A stretch of 64,000 nt of DNA from Acidobacteriota bacterium (GTDB lineage Bacteria > Acidobacteriota > UBA6911 > JACQSX01), in NCBI GenBank assembly GCA_036507075.1, contig DASXQR010000017.1, positions 93,188 to 157,187 on the forward strand, read 5' to 3'. The position numbers and the translations under genes were made by a program. Positions 10,256-27,159 of this stretch are shown here, in pieces. Below the pieces are notes generated by a model. The model searched no databases and was not told the DNA's origin. It worked only from the letters and a program-made list of their open reading frames with translations. The first letter of the stretch is position 1. Each line of letters opens with the position of its first letter.

Positions 10256-13072
10256 TCACTTCAATCCTGCTCGTTCCACCAGCCGGTCAAGGTTGCCGAA
10301 AGCCTGCACCAGCGACTGCTTGTCTACCAGCACAGACTCAAAGATGTCCCCCGTCCGGTCAAGTCTTTTGAAAATGGTCTTCATGTTGTAATCGGCAGGA
10401 TCCAGATTCTTTCTGCCGATCTCGCGCCAGGTCATCGGAGTTGAAGCCGGAGCGCCGGTGCGGGGGCGCAACACGTAGGGTCCAACCACCGTCTTACCTC
10501 GAACATTCTGAAGGAAGTCGATGTAAACCTTGCCGGTCCGGTTCTTCACCGCCCGTTCCAGTGTCACAAGCCGGGGATAGCGCTGCACCATGATGTTTCC
10601 CAGCAGCTCTGCGAATTGGCGCGCCTGTTCGTAGGTGTATTCGGGCTGCAGCGGGACAAAGATGTGAATCCCGGTCGCTCCTGAGGTTTTCGGATAGGCG
10701 CGAAGGCCGATCATTTCCAGATACTCGTGGAGCTTCAGGGCAACCTCCTGGACCATCGAGAACGGGGCCTTTTCCGGATCAAGATCAAACACGATGAAGT
10801 CCGGATTATCGAGACTCTGGACGCGGGAGCTCCACGGGTTGTGGGGGATGCAGGCCAGATTTGCCAGATAGAGCAGCGTGTCGCGATCATTGCAAATTGT
10901 GTAGTAGACATTCCGCCGGGTATCAGGGCTATAGATCTTTGCCCTTGGGATCCATTCGGGAAAGTAGTCAGGCGTGTTTTTCTGGTAAAAGGATTGGCCG
11001 TTTATGCCGTCGGGAAAGCGCTCCAGATTCAGCGGACGGTCGCGCAGGTGGGGCAGAATGATGGGCGCGATCCGGTCGTAAAAGGAAATCAAGTCTCTCT
11101 TCGTGTAACCGTCCTCGGGCCAAAGGACCTTGTCCAAGTTGGAAAATGCAATTTCATGTTCCGTGTGGAACTCATTTTCAACAGCGGAGCGGGAGCCGGC
11201 CTTACGAGAGGTCAAAGTCTTCCCCGCTTTTGCCCGCGTGGTTGTGACGCCGGACTTCTTTGCCGGGTCCTTCAGAGACGCCGTGTCTGTCTTCTTCGCT
11301 TCCGATTTTTCAGTCCTGCGCGCACCCGAAGCCGTCTTTTTCGCCTCCGGTTGTCCTTCGCTGCCAAGCCGGGTCCTGGTGCTGCGCTTTTTCATACCGG
11401 CTGGTTTTCTAGCCTTGGCGGTGGCGCTTTCCTCAGCCAGGCGAACCGTCCGCTTCGAATCCTGTTCCTTCTCGCGGACGCAGTTGAGGGGGTCTTTGTC
11501 TTCGCGCAATCCGAGGAACACGGGATGGCGAATCATTCCGTCGTGGGTCCATTCGGTGAAACGCACCTGCGCCACCAGTACGGGTTTTACCCAGTGGACT
11601 TCGCGCAACCGCGGTGGATTGGAGAGCGGTGATTTCTCCACCTCGAGCTTCTTCAATTTGGCGTATATCTCCTTCAGTGTTGAAATCGTGAAGCCGCCGC
11701 CGGAACTGCCGGCAAATACCAGATTCTTCCGCTCGTCGTAGAGTCCCAACAGGAGGGAACCGAAATACTGGCGCGAACCCTTCGGCTCCGTGTAGCCCAC
11801 AACCACAAACTCCTGCTGCAAGGTGCATCGTATTTTGAGCCACTGGCGGCTGCGTCTGGATTCATAGAAGCTGTTGCGTTCCTTGGCCATGATTCCTTCC
11901 AGGTGACGATCCGCTGCGGCGCGGAAAAAGGCCTTGCCGCGTTCTTCCACATGGTCGGAGTAAATCAGCCGGCCTGCCGACGGTGAATTCCCGTTGGAAA
12001 GGATGACCTGCAGGATCTCTTTGCGTTTCCAGAGAGGAACTTCCGCCAGCAGGTAACCGTTGCAGTAAAGCAGATCGAAAATCACGAAGTGGACCGGCAC
12101 GTCGCGCATTCGCGCTTCCACATCCGCTGCACGAGTCAAATGCATGCGCGGCTGCAGGCGTTGAAAGCTGGACAACCCGTTTTCATCCAGGGCCACAATC
12201 TCGCCGTCGAAAATCGCTTGGTTTAACGGCATCTCCTCCAGCGCTTCCCGAACTTCAGGGAAGCGATCTTTCATTTCAAGATCATTGCGCGAGAGCAGAC
12301 GAATATTTTGGCCGTTTTTGTATGCCAGGGCGCGCACGCCGTCATATTTGATTTCAAACAGCCATTGCGGGGAATCGAACGCTTCCTCAACCAGCGTAGC
12401 CAGCATCATGCCGATTCGCCTGGGCATCGGTTCTTTCTTGCCGGACTTAATATCCAGTTTCTCCAATTGTTTTTCAGTCGGCGTATGCCACTGGCGGGCA
12501 CCCTTGCTTTTTTCCAGTTGCTCGATGGTCTTTCCCGACTTGACCGACTCGGGACGTTCGGCGGTAATGTCAACATCAGGGTTGGCTGTCTCGTCTCCCT
12601 TTTTGAACAACAGCCAATCCTTGCTGGTCCGTCCTCTGGTACGAACCAGGATCCAGACGCCTTTCAATTTCTTTCCATGGAAGAGAATGTGCAGCTTGCC
12701 CTGTTCCCACGCCGTTTGAGGATCCGGGAAATCATAATCTGTCAATTCGTACGTCCCCTTATCCCATACGATCACCGTTCCGGCGCCGTAGTTTCCTTCG
12801 GGAATAGTGCCCTCGAAATCTCCGTAGTCCAGGGGATGATCTTCAACCTGAACGGCCAGTCTCTTCTCGCGCGGATCATAAGAAGGACCCTTAGGCACAG
12901 CCCAACTGCGAAGCACTCCTTCCATTTCCAGGCGCAAGTCATAGTGCAGCCGCGTAGCCTTGTGTTTTTGGATCACAAACGTAAGTTTCCGGGGTTTGGC
13001 CTTCTTGACCTTGCCGCGCGGCTCGGGAGTGGCGGAAAAATCCCGTTTCCTGGCGTAATCCTTCAGCGACAT
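10256..13072 (-). CDS. ligD: ATP-dependent DNA ligase D (phosphoesterase-ligase-polymerase)
   Basis: 938 aa; N-terminal 3'-phosphoesterase domain, central ligase (KYDGVR adenylation motif), ~100-aa K/R/T/S-rich linker, C-terminal LigD primase-polymerase domain. Confidence 0.9.
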   Translation of the reverse strand: MSLKDYARKRDFSATPEPRGKVKKAKPRKLTFVIQKHKATRLHYDLRLEMEGVLRSWAVPKGPSYDPREKRLAVQVEDHPLDYGDFEGTIPEGNYGAGTVIVWDKGTYELTDYDFPDPQTAWEQGKLHILFHGKKLKGVWILVRTRGRTSKDWLLFKKGDETANPDVDITAERPESVKSGKTIEQLEKSKGARQWHTPTEKQLEKLDIKSGKKEPMPRRIGMMLATLVEEAFDSPQWLFEIKYDGVRALAYKNGQNIRLLSRNDLEMKDRFPEVREALEEMPLNQAIFDGEIVALDENGLSSFQRLQPRMHLTRAADVEARMRDVPVHFVIFDLLYCNGYLLAEVPLWKRKEILQVILSNGNSPSAGRLIYSDHVEERGKAFFRAAADRHLEGIMAKERNSFYESRRSRQWLKIRCTLQQEFVVVGYTEPKGSRQYFGSLLLGLYDERKNLVFAGSSGGGFTISTLKEIYAKLKKLEVEKSPLSNPPRLREVHWVKPVLVAQVRFTEWTHDGMIRHPVFLGLREDKDPLNCVREKEQDSKRTVRLAEESATAKARKPAGMKKRSTRTRLGSEGQPEAKKTASGARRTEKSEAKKTDTASLKDPAKKSGVTTTRAKAGKTLTSRKAGSRSAVENEFHTEHEIAFSNLDKVLWPEDGYTKRDLISFYDRIAPIILPHLRDRPLNLERFPDGINGQSFYQKNTPDYFPEWIPRAKIYSPDTRRNVYYTICNDRDTLLYLANLACIPHNPWSSRVQSLDNPDFIVFDLDPEKAPFSMVQEVALKLHEYLEMIGLRAYPKTSGATGIHIFVPLQPEYTYEQARQFAELLGNIMVQRYPRLVTLERAVKNRTGKVYIDFLQNVRGKTVVGPYVLRPRTGAPASTPMTWREIGRKNLDPADYNMKTIFKRLDRTGDIFESVLVDKQSLVQAFGNLDRLVERAGLK

Positions 13073-13142: not shown

Positions 13143-13201
13143 GTAGAAACGCGACGCGCCTGAGATGGCCGCGATATGTCGCGTCCCTGGAGTTTCTATA
13201 C
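13143..13201. repeat. GC-rich palindrome X (GTAGAAACGCGAC...GCGATATGTCGCGTC...GTTTCTATAC)
   Basis: Read directly; related to the perfect palindrome at 22314-22367. Confidence 0.7.
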
Positions 13202-13208
13202 TTGGGGC

Positions 13209-13296
13209 GGAGAGACGGCCCGAGGGCCGTCTCCGGGATGTCCCGGGATTGCCCTGCCGTCGACTTCGCCCGAGACGGCCATCGGACCGTCTCTCC
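13209..13296. repeat. Y element, ~88 bp with terminal inverted repeats GGAGAGACGGCCCGAGGGCCGTCTC ... GAGACGGCCATCGGACCGTCTCTCC
   Basis: Near-identical to the reverse complement of 24555-24644, with the shared internal segment CGGGATTGCCCTGCCNTCGACTTCGCCCGAGACGGCC; partial copy at 2675-2698. Confidence 0.85.
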
Positions 13297-13352
13297 GCGT
13301 GACCAACACACAGGGGCGCGATGTATCGCGGTTCGCCGATTTTCAGCCTTGA

Positions 13353-16300
13353 TTAAACCACTTTGCGCGTATCAACGCGGGTGACAGGTTCGGATCCTTT
13401 GACGGGCGCCATTGCGGGCCTGCGGCGGAAGCGGCCCATGACGTCGCGTCCGGAGCGCCCCAGCCGGCGCCAGTGAAGTGTCGCGGCCAGATCATCCAGG
13501 TAGGAATAAGCCACCGGAGTTGCCAGCAGCGTGAGCAGCAGCGACAGCGATTGACCCCCGATGACCACCATCGCAATGGCTCGACGTTCCTCGGCGCCCG
13601 GACCGGTCCCGACGGCCAGCGGCAGCATGCCGGCCACCAGCGCCAGCGTGGTCATAAGAATCGGCCGCAATCGGTCGCGGTTGCCCTGCATGATGGCTTC
13701 CAGCCGGTCCATTCCGGCGGCCCGCAGATTGTTCATGTGATCAATCTGCAGGATGGCGTTCTTTTTAACGACGCCAAACAACACCAGAATGCCCAGCGCG
13801 GAATACAGATTGAGAGTGTTGCCGGTCGCCCAAAGCGACAGCAGCGCAAAAGGAACGGAAAGCGGAAGGGACAACAGGATGGTGAACGGATGCATCAGGC
13901 TCTCGAACTGCGACGCCAGAATCATGTACATGAAAATGACCGACAGCAGGAATGCAAAAAGGAATTCCGTAAAAGTGCGCTCCAGTTCCCGCCCCTTTCC
14001 GGCAACGGTTGTGGTGTAGGAAGACGGCAAATTCATTTCCGCCGCCGCCTTTCTTAATGCGGCGATTCGGTCCGCCAGGGCATAGCCGGGCCCCACCGAG
14101 GCACGCAAACTGGCCATGCGCTGCCGGTCCAACCGGTCAACGCGCGTGGCCGTACGCGCCGGAACTATGCGCACCACGCTGTCAAGGCGAACCAGATCGC
14201 CGCCCTGGCGCGGAACGTAGAGCAGGCCGATGGTGTTTCGATTATTTCGGTCTTTTTCCGACAGTCGAAGCTGTACGTCGTAGTCGTCATTTACGGAGGC
14301 GTCACGGAACCGCGACACCCTCTGATCCCCGCCAACCATCAGGCGCAGCGCGGTGGCTATATCCTCGGTGCTGACGCCCAGGTCCGCTGCGCGAGCGCGG
14401 TCGATTTCCACCCGCAGCTCCGGTCTATCAAGTTTAAGAGTCGTGTCGGCGTCAACGATACCGCCCAGTTGCTGGGCTTTGTCACGCAGCCTTGCGATAT
14501 AAAGGGCCAGTGAATCCAGGTCCGGTCCGCGCAGTACAAAATCAATTTCCGAATAGCCGCCGCCGATATTGAAAGAAGGCGCGTTGCGGACGGAACATCG
14601 CAGGTCGCGGAATTTCCGCAGCCGCCTGCGGATTTCGACCATCACGTCGCGCTGCGAGTAATTCCCTTCAAAGGCTTGCAGCGGTTTTCCATGAAGGATT
14701 CCACGCCACAAGCGCGGGAGAGAAAAGATGCGTTCGTCATGGGGAGCGATCCGAACATATCCGCGGCCCTCGTTTACCCCGCTGATGTAGCTTCCTCCAA
14801 CACCCGCCAGCACCAGTCGGACACCGCGAACCGAGCGGATTTCACGCTCCACTTTCTGCATCACATCATCCATGGATGCCAGGCTGGTACCTTCCGGGGC
14901 ATTGATATTGACGTCAAACTCGGCCTCGTCAACATCGGTCGGAATGTATTCCTGCCTCACCTGTCGGTAGAGCGGAACTGAAGAAGCGATTACCACCAAT
15001 GCCAGCAGCGCCACGATCAGGCGGTGGCGCATGGTCACGGCAAGCAGCCGGCTGTAGGTGCGATCGATCCAGCCGTAGAAGCCCATTCTGGATCGTGCAG
15101 CCTGCTGGGTGCTGGCTGCATCCTGGGAGCGCAGCAATCGCGCGCTCATCATGGGCGTGAGCGTAAAGGAAACCAGCAAGCTGACCATCACCGCGACGGC
15201 CGCGGTGATTCCAAACTGGTAGAGAAACCGTCCTGAGATGCTGGACATGAACGAAACGGGCACAAATATGACGACCAGGCTCAAGGTTGTGGCCATGACC
15301 GCCAGCCCGATTTCCGCGGTCGCCGCGCGCGCGGCCTCAAAAGGACGGATCTTCTTTTCCTCTACGAAGCGGAAAATGTTTTCCAGGACGACGATGGCGT
15401 CATCGATAACGATTCCCACCATCAGAACCAGCGCCAGCATCGTGACGCTGTTCATCGTGAAATCCAGCGCGCGCATCATGCCGAAAGTCGAGATTACGGA
15501 AGCGGGAATCGCCACGCCGGCGATCAGCGTCGATCGCCAGTTGCGCATAAACGCCAGCACCACCAGGCATGCCAGAATGCTGCCCAAAATCAGATGAATA
15601 GTGATTTCGTGCAGCGCTTCGTAAATGTAGCGCGACTGATCGCGAATGGGCATCAGCTTGATGTCGGCGGGCAATTGGGATTCGATGCGGCGCATATTCG
15701 CCTTGACCGCTTCGATCACCGCCACTGTGTTGGCGCCCGACTGGCGGCGGACCTCCAGCGTGACGGTAGGCACTCCGTTCAGGCGCGAGGTGCTGCGCTG
15801 CTCTTTGGTCCCGTCTTCCGCCCACCCGATGTCCTGCACCCGGACCGGAGTCCCGTTGATGGTTGTGATTACCAGATCGTTGAATAATTTCGGATCCACG
15901 ATCCGTCCCATGGTTCGTAGCGTGTGCTCGTTGACAGCGCCGGTGATATTCCCTCCGGGAATGTCGGCATTCTGGCGGACCAGAGCATTGCGAATCTGCG
16001 TGATGGGAATCTGGTACGCAGCCAGTCGATCGGCATCGACCCAGATATTGATGGCGCGCTGCAGGCCGCCCTGCATGCGGATTTCTCCCACTCCCTCGGA
16101 GCGCTCCAGTTGCTGGCGCACCACTTTGTCGGCGATCTCTGTCAGCTCCCGCAGCGGACGAGGGCCGGATACGGCGATGGTCAAAACCGGGGTGGAGTCG
16201 TTGTCAAATTTGCTCACGATCGGAGGATCCGCGTCACGCGGAAGATCACGAACGACAGTCGCTACACGATCGCGAACGTCCTGCGCGGCCGTATCGATGT

Positions 16301-16601
16301 CCCGATCCAGGTTGAAAGTGGCGATGACAAAAGAAGTTCCTTGTCCGGACACGGAGCGCAGCTCACTGATGCCTTCAACGGTATTGACGGCTTCCTCAAT
16401 GCGCTGTGAGATTTCGGCTTCAGTTTCTTCAGGAGAGGCCCCGGGCAAAAAAGTACGGGTGGCCACAGTGGGGAGGTCCACGGATGGAAAGCGGTCTACC
16501 CCGAGGCGAAAGTAGCTGTCAGTACCCACGACAACCAGCGCGAGGATCAGCATGGCGGCAAAGACAGGGCGCTTTATGCAGACTTCAGCGAGCTTTTGCA
16601 T
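13353..16601 (-). CDS. efflux RND transporter permease subunit (AcrB/CzcA superfamily)
   Basis: 1082 aa, twelve-TM RND architecture, typical RND N-terminus (MQKLAEVCIKRPVFAAMLILALVVVG...). Confidence 0.9.
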   Translation of the reverse strand: MQKLAEVCIKRPVFAAMLILALVVVGTDSYFRLGVDRFPSVDLPTVATRTFLPGASPEETEAEISQRIEEAVNTVEGISELRSVSGQGTSFVIATFNLDRDIDTAAQDVRDRVATVVRDLPRDADPPIVSKFDNDSTPVLTIAVSGPRPLRELTEIADKVVRQQLERSEGVGEIRMQGGLQRAINIWVDADRLAAYQIPITQIRNALVRQNADIPGGNITGAVNEHTLRTMGRIVDPKLFNDLVITTINGTPVRVQDIGWAEDGTKEQRSTSRLNGVPTVTLEVRRQSGANTVAVIEAVKANMRRIESQLPADIKLMPIRDQSRYIYEALHEITIHLILGSILACLVVLAFMRNWRSTLIAGVAIPASVISTFGMMRALDFTMNSVTMLALVLMVGIVIDDAIVVLENIFRFVEEKKIRPFEAARAATAEIGLAVMATTLSLVVIFVPVSFMSSISGRFLYQFGITAAVAVMVSLLVSFTLTPMMSARLLRSQDAASTQQAARSRMGFYGWIDRTYSRLLAVTMRHRLIVALLALVVIASSVPLYRQVRQEYIPTDVDEAEFDVNINAPEGTSLASMDDVMQKVEREIRSVRGVRLVLAGVGGSYISGVNEGRGYVRIAPHDERIFSLPRLWRGILHGKPLQAFEGNYSQRDVMVEIRRRLRKFRDLRCSVRNAPSFNIGGGYSEIDFVLRGPDLDSLALYIARLRDKAQQLGGIVDADTTLKLDRPELRVEIDRARAADLGVSTEDIATALRLMVGGDQRVSRFRDASVNDDYDVQLRLSEKDRNNRNTIGLLYVPRQGGDLVRLDSVVRIVPARTATRVDRLDRQRMASLRASVGPGYALADRIAALRKAAAEMNLPSSYTTTVAGKGRELERTFTEFLFAFLLSVIFMYMILASQFESLMHPFTILLSLPLSVPFALLSLWATGNTLNLYSALGILVLFGVVKKNAILQIDHMNNLRAAGMDRLEAIMQGNRDRLRPILMTTLALVAGMLPLAVGTGPGAEERRAIAMVVIGGQSLSLLLTLLATPVAYSYLDDLAATLHWRRLGRSGRDVMGRFRRRPAMAPVKGSEPVTRVDTRKVV

Positions 16602-18000
16602 TTTCTTCCCAGATCACTGTTACCGGGTCTCCGCTGATCAGGTTTCCGGGCTCAATTACCACAGGCTCACCCGCGGCGAGCCCGCTGCTTATTTCGATGC
16701 GATCGCCGTCATGCCGTCCCGTCTGAACGCGTTTTTCCACCGCCTTGTCGTTCTTGACGCTGATTACTTTCTCGATTCCGGCAAACGTCACCACCGAAGA
16801 AGCCGGCACGAAAATAGAGGGTTTCAGGGCCGCCGTCAGGATCTCAGCTTTGGCAAAGCTGCCCGGTCTCAACTGCCCGCCGGCGTTGGGCACTTCAGCC
16901 TCCACCATCAGGGTTCGATTGCCTTCGGAAATCGACGGGCTGAGTCGCGCCACACGCCCGGAATGCTCACTCTGGCTGCCTTCCACACGAACTCTCACGA
17001 ACTGGCCGGTGCGAATTCCGCCGGCTTCACGCTCCGGGACTGCCAGCCGGAGCCGCAACGGATGAATTTTGACCAGTGTTACCACTGGAGCTCCAGCCGC
17101 CAGGTATTCGCCCATGGAGGCGTGGCGCTCGCGCACCATCGCGTCCAGGGGAACGTGCAGGATGGTGTCGGCCAACTGCTGTCTTGCAATTTCCAGTTCC
17201 GAGCGACGCTGAGCAAGGATGGCTTGCCTGTTGCGAACCTCTTCCTGCGCGTCCTGATACCGGCCTTCCGCCACCTGAAGGGAGGTTGCCGCTGCGTCCA
17301 GTTGCGCCCGAGAAACGATCTTCTGCTCCCAAAGAGCGCTCATGCGGTCGCTGTTAAGCTTTGCTTCCTGAAGCACCGCCCGCGCCTGCCTCACCAGAGA
17401 AGTCTTCTCCGGATCGATGTGATCGTCCTTTCCTTCGGGTGGAAGGCCCAGTCGCGCGCGGGCCTGCTGCAACGCCGTCTGCGCCTGCTCCATCCTCAAC
17501 CGGTAATCAGTGGTATCCAGCTTGGCGATCGCCTGTCCTCTGCGCACCGGGCTTCCCAGGTCCACGGAGATTTCGCTCAACCGACCCGGGACTTTCATTG
17601 CCAGCACGACTTGTTCTTCGGCGGCCAGAGTTCCGCTTACCGCAACAGCGCGCGCCACGGTTTCTTCCCGAGCGCGCGTCACGCGGACCTTTCTTGGTGC
17701 CGCGGTAGATCTCGGTCCCCGCTGGCTGGTATCGGCCGCACCTTCGCGTGAAGCCGCGGTGGTGGTTCTTTCACTGCTGCAGGCGCTCACAAAGACCGCC
17801 AGGGCGAGAGCCGGCAGCCAGAAAGCAATTTTCCGGAGGCGCAGGCTCAATTTGTTTAGCTGGCTTGTAAAGGGCCCGGTAGATTCGGAACAGGCAAAAC
17901 TTGCAGAATGGCGCCCGGACCCGCGATGAAATCCGATCTGATTCGTCACAATTCTTGCGCCCTTCCTACTACCTGATCGATGACCAAAGTGAATGAACAA
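16585..18000 (-). CDS. efflux RND transporter periplasmic adaptor (membrane fusion protein)
   Basis: HlyD/MFP-like beta-barrel and lipoyl region; overlaps the permease start by 17 nt; the real start is probably downstream of 18000, near 17850, just before the hydrophobic segment IAFWLPALALAVFVSAC; no outer-membrane factor gene is adjacent. Confidence 0.8.
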   Translation of the reverse strand: MFIHFGHRSGSRKGARIVTNQIGFHRGSGRHSASFACSESTGPFTSQLNKLSLRLRKIAFWLPALALAVFVSACSSERTTTAASREGAADTSQRGPRSTAAPRKVRVTRAREETVARAVAVSGTLAAEEQVVLAMKVPGRLSEISVDLGSPVRRGQAIAKLDTTDYRLRMEQAQTALQQARARLGLPPEGKDDHIDPEKTSLVRQARAVLQEAKLNSDRMSALWEQKIVSRAQLDAAATSLQVAEGRYQDAQEEVRNRQAILAQRRSELEIARQQLADTILHVPLDAMVRERHASMGEYLAAGAPVVTLVKIHPLRLRLAVPEREAGGIRTGQFVRVRVEGSQSEHSGRVARLSPSISEGNRTLMVEAEVPNAGGQLRPGSFAKAEILTAALKPSIFVPASSVVTFAGIEKVISVKNDKAVEKRVQTGRHDGDRIEISSGLAAGEPVVIEPGNLISGDPVTVIWEENAKAR

Positions 18001-18190
18001 CAGGCATTTTAGAATATTGGGAGCCCCTGCTCAAGCTGAAGGCACACCACGCCGCCGCCAGGGCGACACGACATGTCCTTTTGGCACTTACGGATCGCAA
18101 CGCACTTGTTTCACCGGCCCAGTCTGGTTCTCTCGGCTCGACGGGCTCGTTGCCCAAATCGAGACTGGAGGCGCTCCGTCCACGAGTCTG

Positions 18191-18322
18191 CCACGAAGGC
18201 ACGAAGACAGGAAGGTTTCCGTATTTACCCTGAAGTGAAACGTTACGAAATCCACAATCATGTTTCTAAAAGTGGCACTCTAAGATCAATCTAGATCTTC
18301 GTGCCTTCGTGGCAACTCGTGG
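18191..18322. repeat. palindromic element, CACGAAG family (ccacgaaggcacgaagacaggaagg ... cttcgtgccttcgtggcaactcgtgg) with apical core AAGTGGCACTC
   Basis: Read directly; the apex core is shared with the elements at 36115, 54038 and 56885. Confidence 0.9.
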
Positions 18323-18390
18323 ACTTGGGCGGCTCTTTGGTTGCTACGGCCGGGCTTTGACTCCGCTGCGCCCTCACAGGCTTCGTCGCC

Positions 18391-18564
18391 TCATTTGAAC
18401 GGGAAAAAGTACATCACCCATCCCAGGGCAAAGGCTGAACCTATGAAACAAAAAAGGAGCCAGAAAAAATAACGCCACCGCTCGATTTTTGTAGGCTTCA
18501 TCAGCAGCGCAAAACAGGCCGAGACCACGATGGCGAACACAACCAGCGACAAGAAATGACTCAA
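18391..18564 (-). CDS. small hydrophobic membrane protein, 57 aa (MSHFLSLVVFAIVVSACFALLMKP...); not in the supplied ORF track
   Basis: TTG start 5 nt downstream of GGAGAGG; start overlaps the stop of the upstream ORF 18561..18941 (TTGA); two predicted TM helices. Confidence 0.35.
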   Translation of the reverse strand: MSHFLSLVVFAIVVSACFALLMKPTKIERWRYFFWLLFCFIGSAFALGWVMYFFPFK

Positions 18565-18941
18565 TCTTTCCTCTCCTGCGCAATGTCAAAGGCGTCGACC
18601 ACAAACAGCATGTTCAGTAATCCTGCCGTAAGCAGGAACGTATTTCCGTATTCAAACGTAAATGCGGTGATGTCTCCCTGACCGATCCCGGCCTGCCGCG
18701 CCCAGAAATAGATCAGCCCCATGCTGATGTTGTCGAAAAACTTGAGAATAGAAAAAAAGTCGCCGCCCTCCAGACCATAGATTTTTCCGTTCTGCCTCAG
18801 TCCCAGCCAAAAGAGAATTCCAAATGAGGCTAGAAATACCAGGGCCCGGAACCATTTTTTCAAGAAAAAATGACCCATCCCGGGGACTGCCCAGGCTAGA
18901 ACGCACGCTGCAACTGTCTTTCCTGGATTCTTCAGGGTCAT
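18561..18941 (-). CDS. hypothetical membrane protein
   Basis: 126 aa with three or four hydrophobic helices; no recognisable catalytic motif. Confidence 0.4.
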   Translation of the reverse strand: MTLKNPGKTVAACVLAWAVPGMGHFFLKKWFRALVFLASFGILFWLGLRQNGKIYGLEGGDFFSILKFFDNISMGLIYFWARQAGIGQGDITAFTFEYGNTFLLTAGLLNMLFVVDAFDIAQERKD

Positions 18942-19007
18942 ATATTAAATCCCAAACTTATCAATATACCGTTTTCGGGACCACCGTGGAAAGACCGTTT
19001 CGAAAAT

Positions 19008-19126
19008 CAGAATGCGGAATGTGGATTGCGGAATGCGGAATACAATCAACTTAATTCTTCAAAGCAGACCAAATGCCTTGCTATTCCGCATTCCGCATTC
19101 CGAAATCCGTATTCGGATTCGGATTG
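19008..19126. repeat. palindromic element, CGGAATG family
   Basis: cagaatgcggaatgtggattgcggaatgcggaatac ... ctattccgcattccgcattccgaaatccgtattcggattcggattg; lies in a divergent intergenic gap. Confidence 0.9.
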
Positions 19127-19211
19127 ACCCGCTAACCCCAGCAGTCTGCCTGCGCGGCGTTTGTATTTGAAGCCTGCGTCGGTTAAACTTCATGGTTTTT
19201 CCGGAGGATGA

Positions 19212-20351
19212 TTGATCAAGAAACGCATCTTCACGCCTGGTCCCACCCCGATCTACCCGGAAGCAAGCAAAGTGATGGCCGGGCCGGCGCTACACCATCG
19301 AAAAAAAGAGTTCAAAGAGATTTTTGAACAAACGCTGAAAAATCTAAGGGCAATCTACCGGACCGAAAACGATCTGCTCATTTTAAGCTGCTCTGGCACG
19401 GGCGCCATGGAGTCGGCAGTGGTGAATCTGCTCTCGCCGGGAGCCAAAGCGCTGATCGCCACAGCCGGAAAATTCGGAGAACGATGGGAAAGTCTGTGCA
19501 AGCAATACGGGATTCAGACAACGGTCATCCGAAAGGAGTATGGTGAATCCATCACCGCTTCGGAAATCGGAAATCACCTGGAAAAGGATTCCGGCATTGA
19601 GGCCGTGTTTGTACAGGGATGCGAAAGTTCTACGGGCGCTTCCATGGATCTGAAGGCCATCGGAGAGGTGGTCTCGCGCCATTCCGGCACGGTAAGCGTG
19701 GTAGACGCGATAACCACTTTGGGCGTCGAACCCTTGTACACGGATCAATGGAAGCTGGACGTGGTGATCGGAGGGTCGCAGAAGGCCTTCATGATTCCTC
19801 CGGGCCTGGCTTTTGTCTCCATCAGCCGCAAGGCTTGGGAGAAGTCCAAGAAGTGCAGCGCCAGGAAATTCTATTTCGATTGGAGCCGGGAGCAGGCCAA
19901 CCAGCCCAAGGGCCAGACGGCTTTCACGCCGGCGGTCAATCTGGTGCAAGCACTGCTGGAATCAACGAACTTCATTCTGCAGGACGGCGTAGACGATCTA
20001 GTCGCGAATGCGTCTTTGCTGGCGCGGATGGCGCGGGCGGCGGTCCAGGCGTGGGGCTTGACGCTCTTTCCCCGCCAGCCAGCTAATGCGCTCACGGCAA
20101 TTTCCATTGCGCCTCCCCTGGATGCGCAGAGACTGATCTCAGAGTTGCAGGACAGGTTCGGGGCGGTGATTGCGGGCGGGCAGGGAGAGATGAAAGGCAA
20201 GATCATCCGCATTGCCCATCTTGGATATTATGACGCGCTTGACCTGATCGGCTTGCTGGGCGCCATTGAGTATTGTCTGCGCAAACAAGGACACAAGTTC
20301 GAACTGGGAAGCGGTGTGGCGGCAGCATTGCAGGTGCTGGCGGCGGATTGA
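19212..20351 (+). CDS. class V (AGXT/SGAT family) PLP-dependent aminotransferase, probably serine/phosphoserine aminotransferase
   Basis: 379 aa; fold-type I class V motifs and a GGSQKAF PLP-lysine region; immediately upstream of serA. Confidence 0.8.
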   Translation: MIKKRIFTPGPTPIYPEASKVMAGPALHHRKKEFKEIFEQTLKNLRAIYRTENDLLILSCSGTGAMESAVVNLLSPGAKALIATAGKFGERWESLCKQYGIQTTVIRKEYGESITASEIGNHLEKDSGIEAVFVQGCESSTGASMDLKAIGEVVSRHSGTVSVVDAITTLGVEPLYTDQWKLDVVIGGSQKAFMIPPGLAFVSISRKAWEKSKKCSARKFYFDWSREQANQPKGQTAFTPAVNLVQALLESTNFILQDGVDDLVANASLLARMARAAVQAWGLTLFPRQPANALTAISIAPPLDAQRLISELQDRFGAVIAGGQGEMKGKIIRIAHLGYYDALDLIGLLGAIEYCLRKQGHKFELGSGVAAALQVLAAD

Positions 20352-20352
20352 T

Positions 20353-20618
20353 GGAAAGCCGGAAAGCAGAAGGCAGGAGGCAGGAGGCAGGAGGCGGGAG
20401 ACGGGATCGACGCTATCAGTACCGCGATCCGTTAGGTCGCGGCGGGGAATGTAAGTGGAACTGTTACGGCCACCGGATCGAAGGCAGAAGGCGGAAGGCG
20501 GAAGGCGGTAGGTATGAGCCTAACGATCCATGCTGATCGATTGTCCGAAAGGACATACAGTGGATTTCACGCCTGTTGGTACACTGAACGACCGAACGAC
20601 TGAACGACTGAACGACTG
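20353..20618. repeat. cluster of three direct (non-inverted) tandem arrays: (AGGCAGG)x4 at 20353-20406, (GAAGGCG)x4 at 20479-20512, (CTGAACGA)x4 at 20581-20618
   Basis: Read directly, in the aminotransferase-serA gap; the track ORFs 20266..20536 translate the repeats and are judged spurious. Confidence 0.85.
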
Positions 20619-20661
20619 AGAAGCTGAGTAAGCAGCCACAAGTTCCACTCGAGCTCGAGAA

Positions 20662-22272
20662 ATGCCTGAACAAAACATCTTGATTTCCGACAACCTGTCC
20701 CCAGGCGTGGTGGACCTTCTAAAGCAGGCGGGCTTTACGCCCGACTTTCGGCCCGACATTTCGCGCAAAGATTTGCTCGCCGCCGTCGGCGAGGTCGATG
20801 TCCTGCTTGTGAGGAGCAAAACCGAGGTGGATGTGGAACTTCTGGAAGCGGCTGAAAAGTTGAAAGTCGTGGGACGCGCCGGCGCCGGTGTCGATAACAT
20901 CGATCTGGAATCTGCTACCCGCAGGGGAGTGCTGGTGATGAACACGCCAGGCGGCAACAGCATCAGCGCCGCGGAACACACCATGGCGTTGCTGCTCGCC
21001 CTGGCGAGAAAAGTGCCCCGGGCCGATTCCACAATGAAGCAGGGAAAATGGGATAAGAAGCAGTTTGAAGGCATCGAGCTGCTGGGGAAAACGCTCGGCC
21101 TGCTGGGACTGGGAAAGATCGGATCGGAAGTCGCCAAGCGCGCGGGCGCCTTTGGGATGGACGTGGTCGCATATGATCCGTACGTTCCCGAGAAGCTGGC
21201 GCGAGAGCTGGAAGTCGAGCTTCTCCCACTGGACGATCTGCTGTCGCGCTCGGATTTTATCAGCCTTCACCTGCCTCTGACGGATGCCACTGAAAAGTTG
21301 ATCAACGAGACGGCCATCGCCAAGATGAAACCGGGAATGCGGCTGATTAACTGCGCTCGCGGCGGCCTGATTGACGAGGCAGTGCTGCTGCGGGCTCTCG
21401 AGAGCGGCAAGATCGCCGCGGCTGCTCTGGATGTTTTCGAGCGCGAACCCTCTCCGAATCAGGAATTGATCGGACACCCCAACCTGATCGCCACGCCTCA
21501 CATCGCCGGCTCGACGCAGGAGGCGCAGGAGAAGGTCGGTTTCGAAATCGTGCAGCAGATCATCGATTACTTGCGCGGGGGCGTGGTTCGTAATGCTGTG
21601 AATTTTGCTTCCATCAGCTCGCGTGAGTTCGAGCAGGTCGCCCCGTACATGGAACTGGGGGAGAAACTGGGGCTGTTCCTGGGTCAGATCTGCAGGATCC
21701 GGGTGAGCGAAATTGGGATCCGTTATTACGGTGAGTTGGCTGCGCTCAACTTCAAACCGATTTCCAGTTGCATCCTGAAGGGGATTTTTGAAGCCAATAG
21801 AATCGAAGGCGTAAACATGATCAATGCTTTCAGTGCGGCCCGCGAGCGTCGAATTGTGGTCACGGAGACTTCCAGCAACCGCGAGCGAGGCTTCAAGAAC
21901 CTGATCAGCATTCAAATGCGCAATGAAACGGAAGCGGAATGGGCCGAGGGAGCGTTGCTGCATCGCGGTAATTTGAGGCTGGTTTCCGTCGACGGAATCG
22001 GCTTGGAATCGCCCATGGGAGATTTCCTGTTGTTCATTCGCAATCAGGACCAGCCGGGTGTAATCGGCCAGGTCGGCACCGCTTTGGGCGACAGCGGAAT
22101 CAATATTGCCAGTTTCACGCTCGGCCGCCACGAAGCCCGAGGCGAGGCGGTTGGAATCGTCAACACCGACTCTCCCGTGCCTGCTGAACTGTTGAAAAAA
22201 ATCCGCGAGCTGTCGGCCGTCTCATTCGCCGCTGTGGTATGTCTCGGCGGCGACGTGCGGCGCTGCAAGTGA
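20662..22272 (+). CDS. serA: D-3-phosphoglycerate dehydrogenase (with ASB and ACT domains)
   Basis: 536 aa; NAD-binding GxGxxG (GLLGLGKIG), catalytic His/Glu region, C-terminal ACT domain. Confidence 0.95.
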   Translation: MPEQNILISDNLSPGVVDLLKQAGFTPDFRPDISRKDLLAAVGEVDVLLVRSKTEVDVELLEAAEKLKVVGRAGAGVDNIDLESATRRGVLVMNTPGGNSISAAEHTMALLLALARKVPRADSTMKQGKWDKKQFEGIELLGKTLGLLGLGKIGSEVAKRAGAFGMDVVAYDPYVPEKLARELEVELLPLDDLLSRSDFISLHLPLTDATEKLINETAIAKMKPGMRLINCARGGLIDEAVLLRALESGKIAAAALDVFEREPSPNQELIGHPNLIATPHIAGSTQEAQEKVGFEIVQQIIDYLRGGVVRNAVNFASISSREFEQVAPYMELGEKLGLFLGQICRIRVSEIGIRYYGELAALNFKPISSCILKGIFEANRIEGVNMINAFSAARERRIVVTETSSNRERGFKNLISIQMRNETEAEWAEGALLHRGNLRLVSVDGIGLESPMGDFLLFIRNQDQPGVIGQVGTALGDSGINIASFTLGRHEARGEAVGIVNTDSPVPAELLKKIRELSAVSFAAVVCLGGDVRRCK

Positions 22273-22313
22273 GGCAAAGCATGAAACTCCGCAGTCACCG
22301 CTTTACGTCGTGC

Positions 22314-22367
22314 GTAGAGACGCGACATGTCGCGTCTGAGCTCAGACGCGGCATGCCGCGTCTCTAC
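22314..22367. repeat. perfect 54-bp palindrome X' (GTAGAGACGCGACATGTCGCGTCTGAGCTCAGACGCGGCATGCCGCGTCTCTAC), two sub-hairpins
   Basis: Read directly; lies between the serA stop and the copA start; related to X at 13143-13201. Confidence 0.85.
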
Positions 22368-22375
22368 ACCTGAGA

Positions 22376-24526
22376 ATGTTCAGACACCAAGCCAACAGCA
22401 AACCCAAATCAGACAAATCACAGTACGTCTGTCCCATGCATCCGGAAGTGGTGCGCGACAAACCGGGGTCCTGCCCGATATGCGGCATGGCGCTCGAACC
22501 CGGAATCCCAACCCTGGAAGAGGAAGTGAACCCGGAGCTTGTCGACATGACTCGCAGATTTTGGGTCAGCGCCGTGTTGACAGCACCACTCCTGATTAGC
22601 GCTATGGGCGGGATGATCCTGGGTCACGAGTGGAAGATCACGGGGGCCTGGTCGATTTATGTTCAGTTGGCCCTCGCTACCCCGGTGGTTCTGTGGGCAA
22701 GCCGGCCTTTCTTTGAGCGAGGCTGGGAATCGATCGTAAACCGAAGTCCCAACATGTTCACGTTGATCGCGCTGGGCGTCGGAACCGCATACCTTTACAG
22801 CCTGGTAGCCGCACTGTTTCCACGGTGGTTGCCACAGAGCGCGCGCGGCCATTCAGGTCAGCCGGATGTCTACTTCGAAGCCGCTGCGGTGATTGCCACC
22901 CTCGTTCTTCTGGGCCAAGTGCTTGAACTGCGCGCCCGCAGCAGGACTGGGGCCGCCATTCGATCACTTCTCCAACTGACGCCTGAGACCGCGAGGCGAG
23001 TGGCGCCGAATGGACAAGAAGAAGATATTCCGTTGGAACAAGTCCGAGCCGGAGACCGGCTGCGTATACGCCCGGGCGACAGGGTGCCGGTGGACGGTTT
23101 CGTGATCGAGGGCGTAAGTTCCGTCGATGAATCAATGATTTCCGGAGAACCCTTGCCCGTGGAAAAGACGCCGGGAAGCGGTGTGTCTGCCGGCACAGTG
23201 AATGGCACGGGAAGCTTCATCATGGAAGCGGAGCGAGTCGGCAGCGAGACGTTGCTGGCGCAAATTGTGCGGATGGTCAGCACGGCGCAGCGCAGCAGGG
23301 CCCCTATTCAGCGAGTGGCGGATCTGGCCGCATCCTATTTTGTACCTTTGGTGATCGTTGCTGCGCTGATCACGTTCGCGGTGTGGTGGTTTGCAGGACC
23401 AGAGCCAAAGCTGACGCATTCAATCGTGAATGCAGTCGCGGTCCTGATTATCGCCTGTCCCTGCGCCCTCGGTCTGGCGACGCCGATGTCGATCATGGTG
23501 GGAATAGGACGAGGCGCTCTTTCCGGGGTCTTAGTCCGGGACGCAGAAGCGCTGGAAGTCCTGGAAAAGGTCGATACCCTGGTGGTGGACAAGACAGGCA
23601 CCTTGACTGAAGGGAAACCTCGACTGGGAGAGATATTTGTCCTTGGCGAAAACGACGAAAAGGAGATCCTTCGCCTGGTGGCGAGTCTGGAGCGCGCCAG
23701 CGAGCATCCCCTGGCCGGCGCGATCGTGAGCGCAGCGGAAGTGAGGGGGGTGGAATTCTCCAAAGTGCAGGAGTTTCAAGCCCTTACCGGCAAAGGCATA
23801 GTTGGGAAGATCGGCGGCAAGACTGTTGCCGCGGGAAACAGCAGCTTGTTCGAGGAGCTTTCCATTCCCATCGACCCTTTGCGATCGCGCGCGGAAATGA
23901 TGCGCTCCCATGGTCAGACAGTGATGGCGGTCGCCGTGGAAGGCCGCGCAGCCGCGCTTCTGGCGGTGACGGATCCGATCAAGCCCTCAACAGTGGAAGC
24001 CATTGAGGCGCTCCATCAAGAGCGCGTGACAATCGTAATGGTCACGGGAGATGGTGAAACTACCGCAAAGGCGGTGGCGGGCAAGTTGGGCATCGACCGC
24101 GTTCAGGCAGAAGTTTTGCCTGAGCAAAAAGCGGCAATCGTGAAAAAGCTTCAGCAAGAGGGCAGGATCGTGGCTATGGCCGGCGATGGCATCAACGACG
24201 CGCCGGCGCTGGCCCAGAGTGATGTCGGAATCGCTATGGGGACGGGCGCCGACGTGGCCATGGAAAGCGCGGGGATCACACTGGTTCAGGGTGATCTGCG
24301 CGGAATCGTTCGAGCTCGAAAGCTAAGCCGGGCCACGATGAGGAACATCCGGCAGAATCTGTTCTTCGCTTTCTTCTATAACATGCTGGGCGTGCCCATT
24401 GCGGCGGGGGCGCTTTACCCTTCTTTCGGTCTTCTGCTCAGCCCTATGATTGCCAGCGCGGCGATGACATTCAGTTCCGTCTCCGTTATCGCAAACGCTC
24501 TGCGTCTACGTAGTTTGCAGCTCTAA
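22376..24526 (+). CDS. copA: copper-translocating P1B-type ATPase
   Basis: 716 aa; N-terminal Cys-rich metal-binding segment (CPMHPEV...[10 protein letters not shown]), CPC transmembrane metal site, DKTGT phosphorylation motif, GDGxNDxP hinge. Confidence 0.9.
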
Positions 24527-24554
24527 GATTCCACCACAAAGACACAGTGAGAGT

Positions 24555-24644
24555 GGAGAGACGGCCCGAGGGCCGTCTCGGGCGAAGTCGATGGCAGGGC
24601 AATCCCGTCGACATCCTCTGAGACGTCCCTCAGGACGTCTCTCC
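24555..24644. repeat. Y element copy, inverted relative to 13209-13296
   Basis: Its reverse complement aligns to 13209-13296 at >85% identity over ~88 bp; immediately downstream of copA. Confidence 0.85.
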
Positions 24645-24873: not shown

Positions 24874-25113
24874 ATGACTTTTATTATTTGCGAACCCTGT
24901 GTCGACGTCAAAGACAAGGCTTGCGTCGAGGCCTGTCCGGTAGATTGCATCTATGGAGCCGAGACTGACAATCAGCTCTATATTCATCCGGACGAGTGCA
25001 TCGATTGTGGCGCCTGTGAGCCTGTTTGTCCGGTGACGGCAATCTTTCCGGAAGATGAAGTGCCCGAAAAATGGCAGCAGTATATTGACATTAATAAGAA
25101 CTACTTCAAGTAG
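24874..25113 (+). CDS. fdxA: ferredoxin (two-cluster 4Fe-4S/3Fe-4S type)
   Basis: 79 aa; CxxxxxxCP and [12 protein letters not shown] cysteine motifs. Confidence 0.9.
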
Positions 25114-25301: not shown

Positions 25302-26975
25302 ATGAAGCAAAACCGCAGGGAATCGGACGGCTCAGTCGACAAGCGTACGGAAAGCTCAGGAGAAAATCTTTCCCATGTGGATTACCGTGCGCTGGTGGAG
25401 AATCTGAAAGAAGGCGTCTATCGCAGCACTTTTGACGGTCAAATCCTGCTGGCCAACCCGGCCCTGGCAAAGATCCTGGGATACGACTCGGTAGCCGATT
25501 TGAAGCGCGTCAACGTAAAGGAAATGTACGTTGACCCGCTCGACAGGGAAGAGAACATCAACACACTGATTCGAGACCGCTCCGTCTCGCGCTATTGCCT
25601 TCGGCTGAAAAAGAAAAACGGAGAAACAATTATCGTCGAAGAGACCGGTCAAGCGGTTTTTGACGCCGAGGGGCAGGTCCTCTATTGCGAAGGAATCATC
25701 CAGGACGTCACCGAGCGGGTCGCGGCTGAAATCCGATACCGCAGCCTGGTCGAGAATGCCGGCGATGCTATCTGGACGCTCGATTCAGAAGGGCGTTTCG
25801 TCTCGGTGAACCGCGCGTTTGAGCGGATTCTCGGGTTTGCGCGCGACTCTCTGGTGGGAAAGCATATCGTCGATTGCGATTTGATTGCTCCCGAGTACAT
25901 AAGCCTCGTGGTGAAAGAATTCAAGCAGCGTTTGCAGGGAGAACCGAGCAGAGCGTACGAAATCGAAGTGCTCGACATAAACGGCAATCGAATTCCGATT
26001 GAAATCAGCACTCAGCGGCTGCAGGTCGATGCCCAGACCGTCGAGATAGTGGGAATAGGGCGAGATATGCGCGCCCGCAAAGCTCTGGAGCGGGAGTTGG
26101 TCTCCACCAAGAATCATCTGCAGAGCGTCATCGACAATGCGCTGGATGCCATCATTGTTACCGACGACAGAGGAACGATTCAGGGGTGGAACAAGGGCGC
26201 CGAGCGGATTTTTGAAGTAAAGCGGCAGGCAATGCTGGGGCAGCCGATCGACAAGATTTTCCCCGAAGATAAGTATTTTTCTTACTACCGAGCGCGCCGA
26301 AACCTTGCGCTGGGGAACCCTGTAAGCGATCTGGAACTGACCTGGGTTAGAACAGACGGCACTCAGATACACCTGAACATTTCCGTATCACCGATACGGA
26401 ACGAGAAGGGGAGCGTTGTCGGGGCCAGCGCGATTGCCAGGGACACCACGGAAAAGAAAAAACTGGAAGTGACTCTGCAGCATCTGGTAATCACCGATCA
26501 CCTTACGGAGACTTTCAACCGTTACTACTTTGACCAGTTGTTGCAGAAAGAAATTACCCGTTCCAAGCGCCACGGTTACGCTCTTTCCATCGCCCTGATC
26601 GACATCGACGGCTTTAAGGCCATCAATGATCGGCACGGCCATCAGATCGGCGACAAGGTGCTCAAGGAAAGCGCCCGTATTTTGAAGTCCAGTATCCGAA
26701 ACTCCGACACGCTGGTTCGCTATGGAGGAGACGAGTTTCTGATTCTGCTGCCGGAAACCGATCAAAACAAGATCCTGTACGTCGTGCGTCGGATTGAAGA
26801 GAAGCTGCACATCTGGAATCAGGATGAATCTTTTCTCGATCGCCCGCTTGAATTCAGCATCGGCTATGCCACGTGCGTGGGCGGCGACGATGTGGAAAAG
26901 TCCCTTCGCTCCGCCGATATGCAGATGTATGAACAAAAAAACCGAAAGCGCGGCGGTCGGGAAACGATCATGTAA
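25302..26975 (+). CDS. multi-PAS sensor diguanylate cyclase (GGDEF)
   Basis: 557 aa; three or four PAS/PAC repeats, C-terminal GGDEF domain with intact RYGGDEF and an RxxD I-site (RNSD). Confidence 0.9.
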   Translation: MKQNRRESDGSVDKRTESSGENLSHVDYRALVENLKEGVYRSTFDGQILLANPALAKILGYDSVADLKRVNVKEMYVDPLDREENINTLIRDRSVSRYCLRLKKKNGETIIVEETGQAVFDAEGQVLYCEGIIQDVTERVAAEIRYRSLVENAGDAIWTLDSEGRFVSVNRAFERILGFARDSLVGKHIVDCDLIAPEYISLVVKEFKQRLQGEPSRAYEIEVLDINGNRIPIEISTQRLQVDAQTVEIVGIGRDMRARKALERELVSTKNHLQSVIDNALDAIIVTDDRGTIQGWNKGAERIFEVKRQAMLGQPIDKIFPEDKYFSYYRARRNLALGNPVSDLELTWVRTDGTQIHLNISVSPIRNEKGSVVGASAIARDTTEKKKLEVTLQHLVITDHLTETFNRYYFDQLLQKEITRSKRHGYALSIALIDIDGFKAINDRHGHQIGDKVLKESARILKSSIRNSDTLVRYGGDEFLILLPETDQNKILYVVRRIEEKLHIWNQDESFLDRPLEFSIGYATCVGGDDVEKSLRSADMQMYEQKNRKRGGRETIM

Positions 26976-26989
26976 GGCTCCGAACAAAA

Positions 26990-27159
26990 GTTACGGGTTC
27001 CGGGTTTCGAGTTACGGGTTTTCGTAACCCAGAAACTTGCTTTTCTCAGTTGCTCTACCGAAGACTCCCGCCTGTAAACCCAATCTTTGCCCGCATAGAT
27101 TTCGGGTCTCTGCAAATTCGTCATATCTCGCAACCCGGAACCCGTAACTCGCAAACCGG
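26990..27159. repeat. palindromic element, GTTACGG family (short arms, ~100-nt apex)
   Basis: ttacgggttccgggtttcgagttacgggttttcgtaaccc ... cgcaacccggaacccgtaactcgcaaaccgg. Confidence 0.8.

Follow-up and report, generated by a model that had tools for sequence, protein, structure and literature searches.

Two kinds of short repeats, X and Y, occur in the 64-kb stretch of DNA from an uncultured member of the Acidobacteriota analyzed here (the window, i.e., the whole stretch), and one copy of each borders copA, which encodes a P1B-type copper ATPase. The copies are X1 (13143-13201), X2 or X' (22314-22367), Y1 (13209-13296) and Y2 or Y' (24555-24644). In all probability, X and Y belong to a single intergenic family of repetitive extragenic palindromes (REPs) and their inverted doublets (REPINs), arranged in mosaics like bacterial interspersed mosaic elements (BIMEs), and the two copies around copA have colonized a variable gap rather than served as the vehicle of the gene. 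We regard the family as a REP/REPIN system with a REP-associated tyrosine transposase (RAYT) because the hairpins flank a RAYT-like gene in three other assemblies and because deleted copies of this gene unit exist. Loci and contigs from other assemblies, which were compared with the window, carry L-numbers.

Tagged hairpins in the window

The basic unit has 20-25 nt, reads 5'-G(G/T)AG-AGACG-[3-4 variable stem bases]-[2-4 nt loop]-[complement]-CGTCT-C-3' and mostly occurs in inverted pairs. Seven hairpins with such a stem (AGACG-N10-CGTCT) are found at four sites of the window, and the pattern GAGACG-N(4-30)-CGTCTC is present four times against an expectation of 0.17. An earlier note on this DNA had taken the repeats for one related family, which is borne out by this common hairpin, as the AGACG/CGTCT foot is the same in X2 and in the Y hairpins. 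The tag in front of the foot has two forms, GTAG...CTAC in X2 and GGAG in the Y hairpins and in a solo copy at 2.7 kb, and both forms adjoin RAYT-like genes.

Y1 and Y2 are real copies of one element, with Y2 inverted and with the termini GGAGAGACGG...CCGTCTCTCC, as had been reported. Y1 and the reverse complement of Y2 align over their full length (80 of 90 positions identical; 94% over a 53-nt segment). Each copy is built of GGAG-tagged terminal hairpins (GGAGAGACG-N10-CGTCTC), which form an inverted pair around a core of 38-40 nt, and folds into one long hairpin (z-scores from -5.3 to -7.4); hairpin B'' of Y2 carries a compensatory change from G-C to T-A. For X2, the location given before was right, as was that of X1, but its description as a perfect 54-bp palindrome was not, since only 50 of 54 positions are self-complementary. 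Within each half, the other four positions compensate one another (GAC/GTC vs. GGC/GCC), and X2 therefore consists of two separate perfect 20-nt hairpins (AGACGCGACATGTCGCGTCT and AGACGCGGCATGCCGCGTCT). Both GTAG-plus-perfect-stem sites of the window are found here, two in all, compared with 0.22 expected. X1 is weakly palindromic (fold z -1.5 and -2.8), and its likeness to X2 is limited to the start GTAGAnACGCGAC and the hairpin CGCGAYATGTCGCG. A GTAG...CTAC unit homologous to X1 is present at L061 119-183.

X1 and Y1 are indeed adjacent in the gap between ligD and acrB. Their treatment as separate units does not hold, since the right half of X1 and the left hairpin of Y1 (window 13166-13234) are conserved together and recur as one unit in two other genomes, in L077 and L061 (both DASXTB01) and in L010 (DASYPF01), with 84-89% identity over 71-74 nt; the boundary between X and Y is, thus, not a natural one. 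The conserved module can be written as [GC hairpin GGCCGCGACAnGTCGCGGCC] - CTGGAGTTTCTAcaTTTTGGgAGC - [GGAGAGACGGCCnnnnGGCCGTCTC]. A third CGCGATGTATCGCG hairpin (13317-13330) lies in the right flank of Y1, and the layout of 13167-13335 is [A]-linker-[B]-core-[B']-x-[A'], about 170 nt in total. Further small GC hairpins and a CTGGAGTTT... linker accompany the Y-type and X'-type pairs. This linker recurs at the 2.7-kb site, where on the - strand CTGGAGTTT precedes about six tandem copies of GGACAATTTTAGGGT and then the hairpin. Miniature inverted-repeat transposable elements have 70-300 nt, terminal inverted repeats and a target-site duplication; Y measures 88-90 nt, each of its inverted ends 25 nt, and the unit at 13167-13335 approximately 170 nt, and a target duplication is not visible.

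The copy at 2.7 kb had been described as a terminal fragment of Y (2675-2698) fused to a broken gene of a TonB-dependent receptor (TBDR). It is a complete single hairpin (2674-2698), i.e., a copy of the Y terminal hairpin and not a fragment, while the fusion itself is confirmed: homology to TBDRs begins at about nt 2672, right at the inner foot of the hairpin, and on the far side follow a linker array and the end of an acyltransferase gene, whose stop codon is located within the array. Two open reading frames (ORFs) make up the remnant; ORF 2184-2717 (-) covers Plug positions 32-103 and barrel positions 1-38, ORF 1628-2338 (-) barrel positions 624-827 of 838. About 585 profile positions are also missing from the interior of the pseudogene, and the two ORFs overlap owing to a frame shift. 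Judged by these profile matches, the 5' breakpoint is a deletion or rearrangement junction exactly at the hairpin foot and not a simple Y insertion. Of the proposal that Y insertion disrupts genes, the hairpin at the exact breakpoint stands and simple insertion does not; a disruption by the hairpin may be read from its position.

At each of the four sites, the repeat follows a stop codon at a distance of 0-60 nt (acyltransferase gene, acrB, serA and copA), and it forms a very stable fold (-46 to -71 kcal/mol, z -5 to -8). With respect to the transcript of the gene upstream, Y1 and Y2 are oriented alike, but with two Y copies only, this proves nothing. Such positions would suit RNA elements selected by the host, i.e., hairpins which mainly end or stabilize the serA, copA and acrB transcripts and whose spread is secondary, and REPs are known as 3' RNA elements (Di Nocera 2013, PMC3733652). 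On the other hand, no T run (U-tract) follows X, Y or any other of the hairpins, none of the six terminator-like sites found in a terminator scan coincides with X or Y, and an Rfam scan at gathering and permissive thresholds gave nothing relevant. The promoter scan showed nothing at the X and Y elements either. Further, the hairpins flank a transposase gene of which deleted derivatives exist, which points to spread by transposition. We consider a primary RNA role improbable, but an RNA function could exist as an added role beside transposition, and the serA, copA and acrB transcripts would gain highly stable hairpins at their 3' ends from the repeats.

The family and its transposase in related genomes

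When one genome per species was scanned with GGAGAGACGNCCNNNNGGNCGTCTC, at least 80 loci were detected, and about 65 of the matches listed belong to one Acidobacteriota metagenome-assembled genome (MAG), DASXTB01, which is not the genome of the window (no coding matches). The listed loci contain at least 143 hairpin copies under a relaxed and at least 120 under a strict definition. Among the matches listed, the one stem pair that the search pattern left free is Watson-Crick in 119 of 120 strict DASXTB01 copies (85 G-C, 34 C-G). Nearly all loops read YGNG when GGAG is set at the 5' end; the five GGAG hairpins of the window follow the same rule of loop and polarity. Pairing and oriented loop together show that the tagged hairpins of this family are maintained in structure and fixed in polarity.

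DASXTB01 harbors at least 29 inverted doublets, 48 nt apart, within a conserved unit of about 120 nt, and many of its hairpins form mosaics with other small GC hairpins and with GTAG-tagged hairpins. Genomic context was assessed with an ORF model using ORFs of at least 150 aa, by which 51 of the hairpin clusters fall between genes and 2 within ORFs (among the matches listed and under a crude model). With the first ORF model, 26 clusters had appeared "inside ORFs," but the ORFs in question were short and spurious, produced by reading through G+C-rich repeats, and only the said two remain. By gap orientation, the clusters number 17/28/6, compared with a background of 48/153/43; the excess in convergent and the deficit in divergent gaps is the usual REP pattern (PMC3733652). 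On these counts, the family is abundant, mosaic and intergenic in a relative of the organism studied. A metagenome collection searched with the Y core gave seven loci, six of which were chance matches in coding sequence and were rejected; evidently, the samples of the window's own organism are not in this collection. The seventh (L096) is a real Y copy, which shares 93% identity with the right part of Y1 and is located at a contig end, in an unrelated locus and in the metagenome of the closest relative (sample Ga0114129). This contig begins inside the Y copy, and two Logan contigs of 1864 nt (L101, L102) end about 70 nt after the serA stop codon, i.e., in mid-X2, which suggests that the hairpin repeats break short-read assemblies.

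A putative transposase of the family is encoded at L001 251-775 in DASXTB01. The 174-aa protein (P0241) matches Pfam Y1_Tnp with 29.3 bits (gathering score 23), and its best NCBIfam match is REP_Tyr_transpos, the REP-associated tyrosine transposase model (E 2e-13, under the curated cut-off). Hairpin B lies on both sides of the gene (177-201 and 824-848), and the outer flank, GCTCCCAAAATGTAGAAACTCGAG plus a GC hairpin, is the same module as in the window. In a second assembly (GCA_030157145, L097), a protein 87% identical to that of L001 is encoded between hairpins 52 nt upstream and 44 nt downstream which are 97% complementary. In another organism (L098/L099), the protein is 45% identical and its gene flanked by GAGACGTCCCAGCGGGACGTCTC-TAC and GTAG-AGACGCCGCCGCTGGCGCGTCTC hairpins; these hairpins, among them GTAG-AGACGCC...CGTCTC of L098, have the GTAG tag and the AGACG foot as in X2. 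Thus, a hairpin-flanked RAYT-like gene was found in three assemblies other than that of the window. A fourth homolog (L105) is without flanking hairpins and carries GTAGAGACGCCCCGGCGGGGCGTCTCTAC inside its ORF.

A profile of 58 homologs was compared with solved structures, and E. coli TnpA-REP (4ER8) was the sole significant match (E 1e-8), the alignment being anchored at the HUH motif and the Tyr region. H80 and H82 are invariant among the homologs and Y160 nearly so. All 58 match NCBIfam REP_Tyr_transpos (E down to 7e-20) and 2 match the IS200 model; several are named RayT in the JGI annotation. A single-sequence PDB search with P0241 yielded spurious viral polymerase matches only. An E. coli RAYT sequence tried as a seed had no Pfam match and was dropped, and its weak tblastn match to L001 served as a lead only, which was then tested independently. 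Two IS200-type TnpA genes of DASXTB01 (L012 1764-2273 (-) and L043 6339-6794 (-); Pfam Y1_Tnp 80-90 bits) were not used as evidence, since AGACG hairpins occur in their vicinity without flanking them.

Internally deleted or partial transposase units are present in DASXTB01 at L061, L049, L021, L071 and L012. At L061, the first six or so codons are joined straight to the last ~130 nt of the gene, and internal deletion of this kind is the route by which non-coding transposon derivatives arise. E. coli TnpA-REP acts on single-stranded REP hairpins in vitro. By analogy, the RAYT-like enzyme would work on single-stranded DNA, recognizing the G(G/T)AG tag together with the AGACG foot, and would multiply non-coding units in trans, as proposed for REPINs and RAYTs. 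The copies in the window would then be passengers, persisting downstream of genes where they are least harmful, and the two around copA would result from colonization of a variable intergenic hot spot.

Some RAYT-like genes carry an in-frame GTAGAGACG...CGTCTCTAC hairpin of their own, in a variable loop after the HUH motif, where it encodes the protein motif VET..R.VST, sometimes repeated. The motif occurs in at least 19 of the 58 homologs, from several phyla, and the hairpin is seen at the DNA level in L098 (3178-3230) and L105 (1774-1802). A more far-reaching reading, which we put forward only tentatively, is that the AGACG-foot hairpins represent an undescribed, phylum-spanning REP-RAYT lineage which, in Acidobacteriota, would still act as a live insertion sequence, judging by its extra and internally deleted gene copies. 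At least one third of the transposase genes of the clade would carry the in-frame GTAGAGACG...CGTCTCTAC, hinting at self-recognition or self-regulation, and host genes would have been remodeled by the hairpins (loss of the YHS domain in copA, truncation of the TBDR gene).

Several points weigh against the assignment to a REP/REPIN-RAYT system. The window itself is without a RAYT-like gene, the copies known from its own organism come from four sites in the 64 kb read, and the tag of the Y hairpins is GGAG, not the canonical GTAG. The transposases form a distant clade which misses the curated cut-off of REP_Tyr_transpos (50-54 bits vs. 80). The transposase unit of DASXTB01 exists as one full and at least five truncated copies, which looks more like an insertion sequence (IS) than a typical single-copy RAYT. 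The context counts come from the crude ORF model mentioned. Finally, transposition was not directly observed; what bears on mobility is that X2 is missing at the serA-copA junction of a relative with 88% SerA identity, and that the two metagenome copies of the window's organism are identical.

The copA locus

X2 begins 41 nt after the serA stop codon and ends 9 nt before the longest ORF of copA, and Y2 follows 28 nt after the copA stop codon, so that the reported position of X' just upstream and Y' just downstream of the gene is correct. The earlier note proposed that copA sits between the two halves of a composite repeat, as cargo or at a recombination hot spot, and named the serA-copA-fdx synteny in relatives as a check, which was carried out. 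In L089 (SerA 76% identical), the genes follow in the order of the window, aminotransferase-serA-[293 nt]-fdx-PAS-ABC genes, without copA. L088 (DASYPF01, SerA 76%) also is without copA, and its gap of about 580 nt contains a different GTAG-tagged long inverted repeat (11660-11945; arms of ~50 nt around ~170 nt), by which the gap is seen to be occupied by REP-type elements of another family as well. In L085 (JACQSX01, SerA 76%), about 7 kb separate serA and fdx, including a cupredoxin and, on the other strand, a different HMA-type copper ATPase; in full, the insert (3105-9524) encodes a Nal1-type peptidase, the cupredoxin, the HMA-type copper ATPase, a PIN-domain protein and a guanylate-cyclase-domain protein. 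In view of this insert, copper genes appear to have entered the gap independently. Synteny is lost after serA in the outgroup L103 (SerA 59%). In the closest relatives, L083 and L084 (SerA 88%), copA is present, but its start overlaps the serA stop codon (GTGA), leaving no intergenic space and no X2; both contigs end inside copA and the comparison covers the serA-copA junction. The AGACG hairpin was found in none of these loci (L089, L088, L085, L103, L083/L084).

On the gene orders compared, the serA-fdx gap is a variable spot and appears to be a small hot spot at which different copper-handling genes have come and gone. The presence of X2 at copA is, by the same comparison, lineage-specific. 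Since the closest relative has the serA-copA overlap without X2, X2 is probably not part of whatever brought copA. We conclude that copA was presumably joined to serA before X2 arrived, or that X2 was lost in L083.

The N-terminus of L083 CopA is a YHS domain, and most CopA homologs in databases have about 810 aa including YHS, whereas CopA of the window has 716 aa without it. The two proteins are 69% identical, with homology from about codon 11, i.e., ~35 nt past X2. X2 thus adjoins an apparent 5' shortening of copA, the YHS-coding end being missing, and together with the TBDR gene, truncated at a hairpin foot, this would fit hairpins acting as deletion endpoints. The serA-copA gap was also compared with the YHS-coding part of L083 copA for traces of homology, but local DNA alignment was no better than with shuffled sequences, and a protein alignment of the gap with the L083 YHS region was carried by a KS..Q(F/Y)VCPMHP segment only; homology is not claimed. 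Public gene calls start copA at Met21 (22436), which would remove the first Cys of the HMBD motif (YVCPMHP). The ATG at 22376, 9 nt past X2, seems the more likely start codon, which would place the ribosome-binding region within the X2 hairpin or right beside it. An exact look-up of the 716-aa CopA gave no match, because the public gene calls start 20 codons later.

In favor of X' and Y' as halves of one mobile unit, unsplit at 13.2 kb, which carried or received copA, are the absence of the gene from L089 and L088, the distance of the repeats from the edges of the window-specific segment (41 nt for X2, ~60-95 nt for Y2) and the contiguity of X and Y at 13.2 kb. But the overlap of serA and copA in L083 without X2 contradicts it, and the CTGGAGTTT linker joining X1 to Y1 is absent from X2. 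X2 and Y2 represent different types of element and share no linker, direct repeats or a target duplication are not seen at their outer edges, and a Y copy exists elsewhere without cargo (L096). Further, hairpins fill many successive intergenic gaps in DASXTB01, in unrelated contexts, so that a gene flanked by hairpins is expected by chance. The base composition of copA shows no clear anomaly relative to its neighbors and is, in this respect, unremarkable. We rate a composite repeat with copA as cargo as very improbable; of the original alternative, the variable gap stands, while cargo does not.

The palindromes of the GAGACGCGACATGTCGCGTCTC type had also been considered as operators, with the one upstream of copA bound by a metal-responsive regulator. 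X2 is directly upstream of copA and has a strong dyad. However, no MerR-, CsoR- or ArsR-type gene adjoins copA, X2 with its 54 nt and two separate hairpins is unlike short operators, and the closest relative has no intergenic space between serA and copA. Elsewhere, in unrelated contexts, RAYT-like genes are flanked by, or contain, hairpins whose GTAGAGACG/CGTCTCTAC ends are identical. An operator is, in our view, hardly credible, and we retain the colonized variable gap as the explanation.

SerA of the window is 100% identical to a protein of the NCBI entry "MAG TPA: Acidobacteriota bacterium," and the same locus with identical repeats is found on two JGI metagenome contigs, both copies representing the same organism, which occurs in samples 3300036860 and 3300036861. 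The features are compiled in Table 1.

Table 1. Repeat components and genes of the window.
Feature	Position	Strand	Remarks
Hairpin B, solo, REP-type	2674-2698	-	- strand GGAGAGACGGCCCGAGGGCCCTCTC; one stem mismatch
Outer linker	2699-2807	-	CTGGAGTTT, then about six GGACAATTTTAGGGT-like tandem units (period 16-17); compare DASXTB01 linker CTGGAGTTTGGACATTTT
X1, left and middle part	13143-13186	+	GTAG-AAACGCGACGCG..., then GC hairpin A (GGCCGCGATATGTCGCGTCC, 13167-13186)
Linker, hairpin A to hairpin B	13187-13208	+	CTGGAGTTTCTATACTTGGGGC; partly counted in X1 by the earlier note
Y1, REPIN-like inverted pair	13209-13296		hairpin B 13209-13233, 38-nt core 13234-13271, hairpin B' 13272-13296; one long hairpin, z -5.5 and -7.4
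Second A-type hairpin	13314-13335		GGGGCGCGATGTATCGCGGTTC; mirror of hairpin A across Y1
X2, GTAG-tagged REP dimer	22314-22367		GTAG-AGACGCGACATGTCGCGTCT-GAGCTC-AGACGCGGCATGCCGCGTCT-CTAC; tags outward, 6-nt spacer; fold z -8.3
Y2, inverted vs. Y1	24555-24644		hairpin B 24555-24579, 40-nt core, hairpin B'' 24620-24644 = GAGACGTCCCTCAGGACGTCTCTCC
TBDR pseudogene	1628-2717	-	5'-truncated, starts at Plug profile position 32
Acyltransferase gene	2786-3505	-
ligD	10256-13072	-
acrB-type resistance-nodulation-division (RND) pump	13353-16601	-
Membrane fusion protein of RND pump	16585-18000	-
DUF6677 gene			between membrane fusion protein gene and class-V aminotransferase in gene list
Class-V aminotransferase	19212-20351	+
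serA	20662-22272	+
copA, P1B-type copper ATPase	22376-24526	+	HMBD domain yes, YHS domain no; gene between X2 and Y2, not a repeat
Ferredoxin (fdx)	24874-25113	+	79 aa
PAS-GGDEF protein	25302-26975	+

Besides the hairpin family, the window contains many intergenic regions made up of tandem units of 7-8 nt (CGGGTTA/CGAGTTA and ATTCCGC types), whose arrays form large inverted repeats around a center, at 1327-1616, 5213-5595, 10059-10261, 19010-19121, 26988-27157, 31832-32079, 55276-55404, 56854-57069 and 59725-60090. They are probably the first repeat family of the earlier note. Heptamer arrays are also present in DASXTB01, and window 20352-20406 matches several loci. Long near-perfect inverted repeats are found at 33113-33261, 47042-47212 and 53975-54222 (arms 63-69 nt, 90-98% complementary), with short tandem units at their outer ends (CCGCCAAGA, CACGAAG); since 33115-33173 and 47135-47193 are 85% complementary, these form a further dispersed family. 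An exact 24-nt repeat, ACCGCGAAGGCGCGAAAGCGCGAA, occurs at 39365-39388 and 48650-48673, each just past a gene; with its GAA loop, this small GC hairpin motif resembles those beside the hairpin family in DASXTB01.

Comparison with known repeat systems

REP/REPIN-RAYT systems and the BIMEs of Pseudomonas and Enterobacteria were reportedly described by Nunvar in 2010 and by Bertels and Rainey in 2011. The family shares with them short imperfect palindromes with a 5' tag of the GTAG type (GTAG itself in X2, GGAG in the Y hairpins), inverted pairs folding into long hairpins, mosaic clusters, an extragenic position mostly downstream of genes, and a Y1/HUH transposase gene with hairpins of its own. 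In contrast to known REPs, it represents a new hairpin class with an AGACG...CGTCT foot, its abundant form is GGAG-tagged and its host belongs to the Acidobacteriota. Unlike typical single-copy RAYTs, the gene has truncated extra units in DASXTB01, and the protein is only distantly related to the E. coli RAYT. The Y1 HUH transposase, the subterminal hairpins in place of classical terminal repeats and the short non-coding derivatives with internal deletions are reminiscent of IS200/IS605 elements. However, 58 of 58 homologs match the RAYT model and 2 of 58 the IS200 model, and the hairpins far outnumber the gene.

TIRtrons and their TIRYTs, known from Koribacter versatilis, Terriglobus, Acidobacterium and Granulicella (PMC3733652), are likewise tyrosine transposase genes of Acidobacteria with longer inverted repeats, some in moderately abundant families. 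The full terminal module of ~60 nt found here (GC hairpin, linker, hairpin B) behaves like the terminal inverted repeat (TIR) of a TIRtron; but, compared with the published TIRs and TIRYTs by description only, the family differs by a REP-like tagged hairpin within the terminal repeat and by its far higher abundance. CGTC-tagged REPs resemble it by the CGTC at the end of each hairpin. They have an unpaired CGTC tag, a stem starting with A-T, a CCA tail and no transposase (PMC3733652), whereas here CGTC/GACG is a paired foot, stems are G+C-rich and a transposase is present.

In the survey of PMC3733652, GTAG REPs were found in Proteobacteria, Cyanobacteria, Chloroflexi and the PVC group; none were reported from Acidobacteria, for which it had TIR-flanked tyrosine transposases only. 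No description of the AGACG-foot family was found in the literature searched; apparently, it is undescribed for Acidobacteriota, and the present results document a REP-RAYT family in this phylum. With the hairpin consensus and the transposase profile, such repeats can be annotated in soil metagenomes, which has practical value because contigs L096, L101 and L102 end in or beside the repeats. As for the copA locus, the local pattern is explained as ordinary genome ecology, i.e., by selfish REP-type hairpins, and the false lead of a copper gene on a novel composite element is removed.

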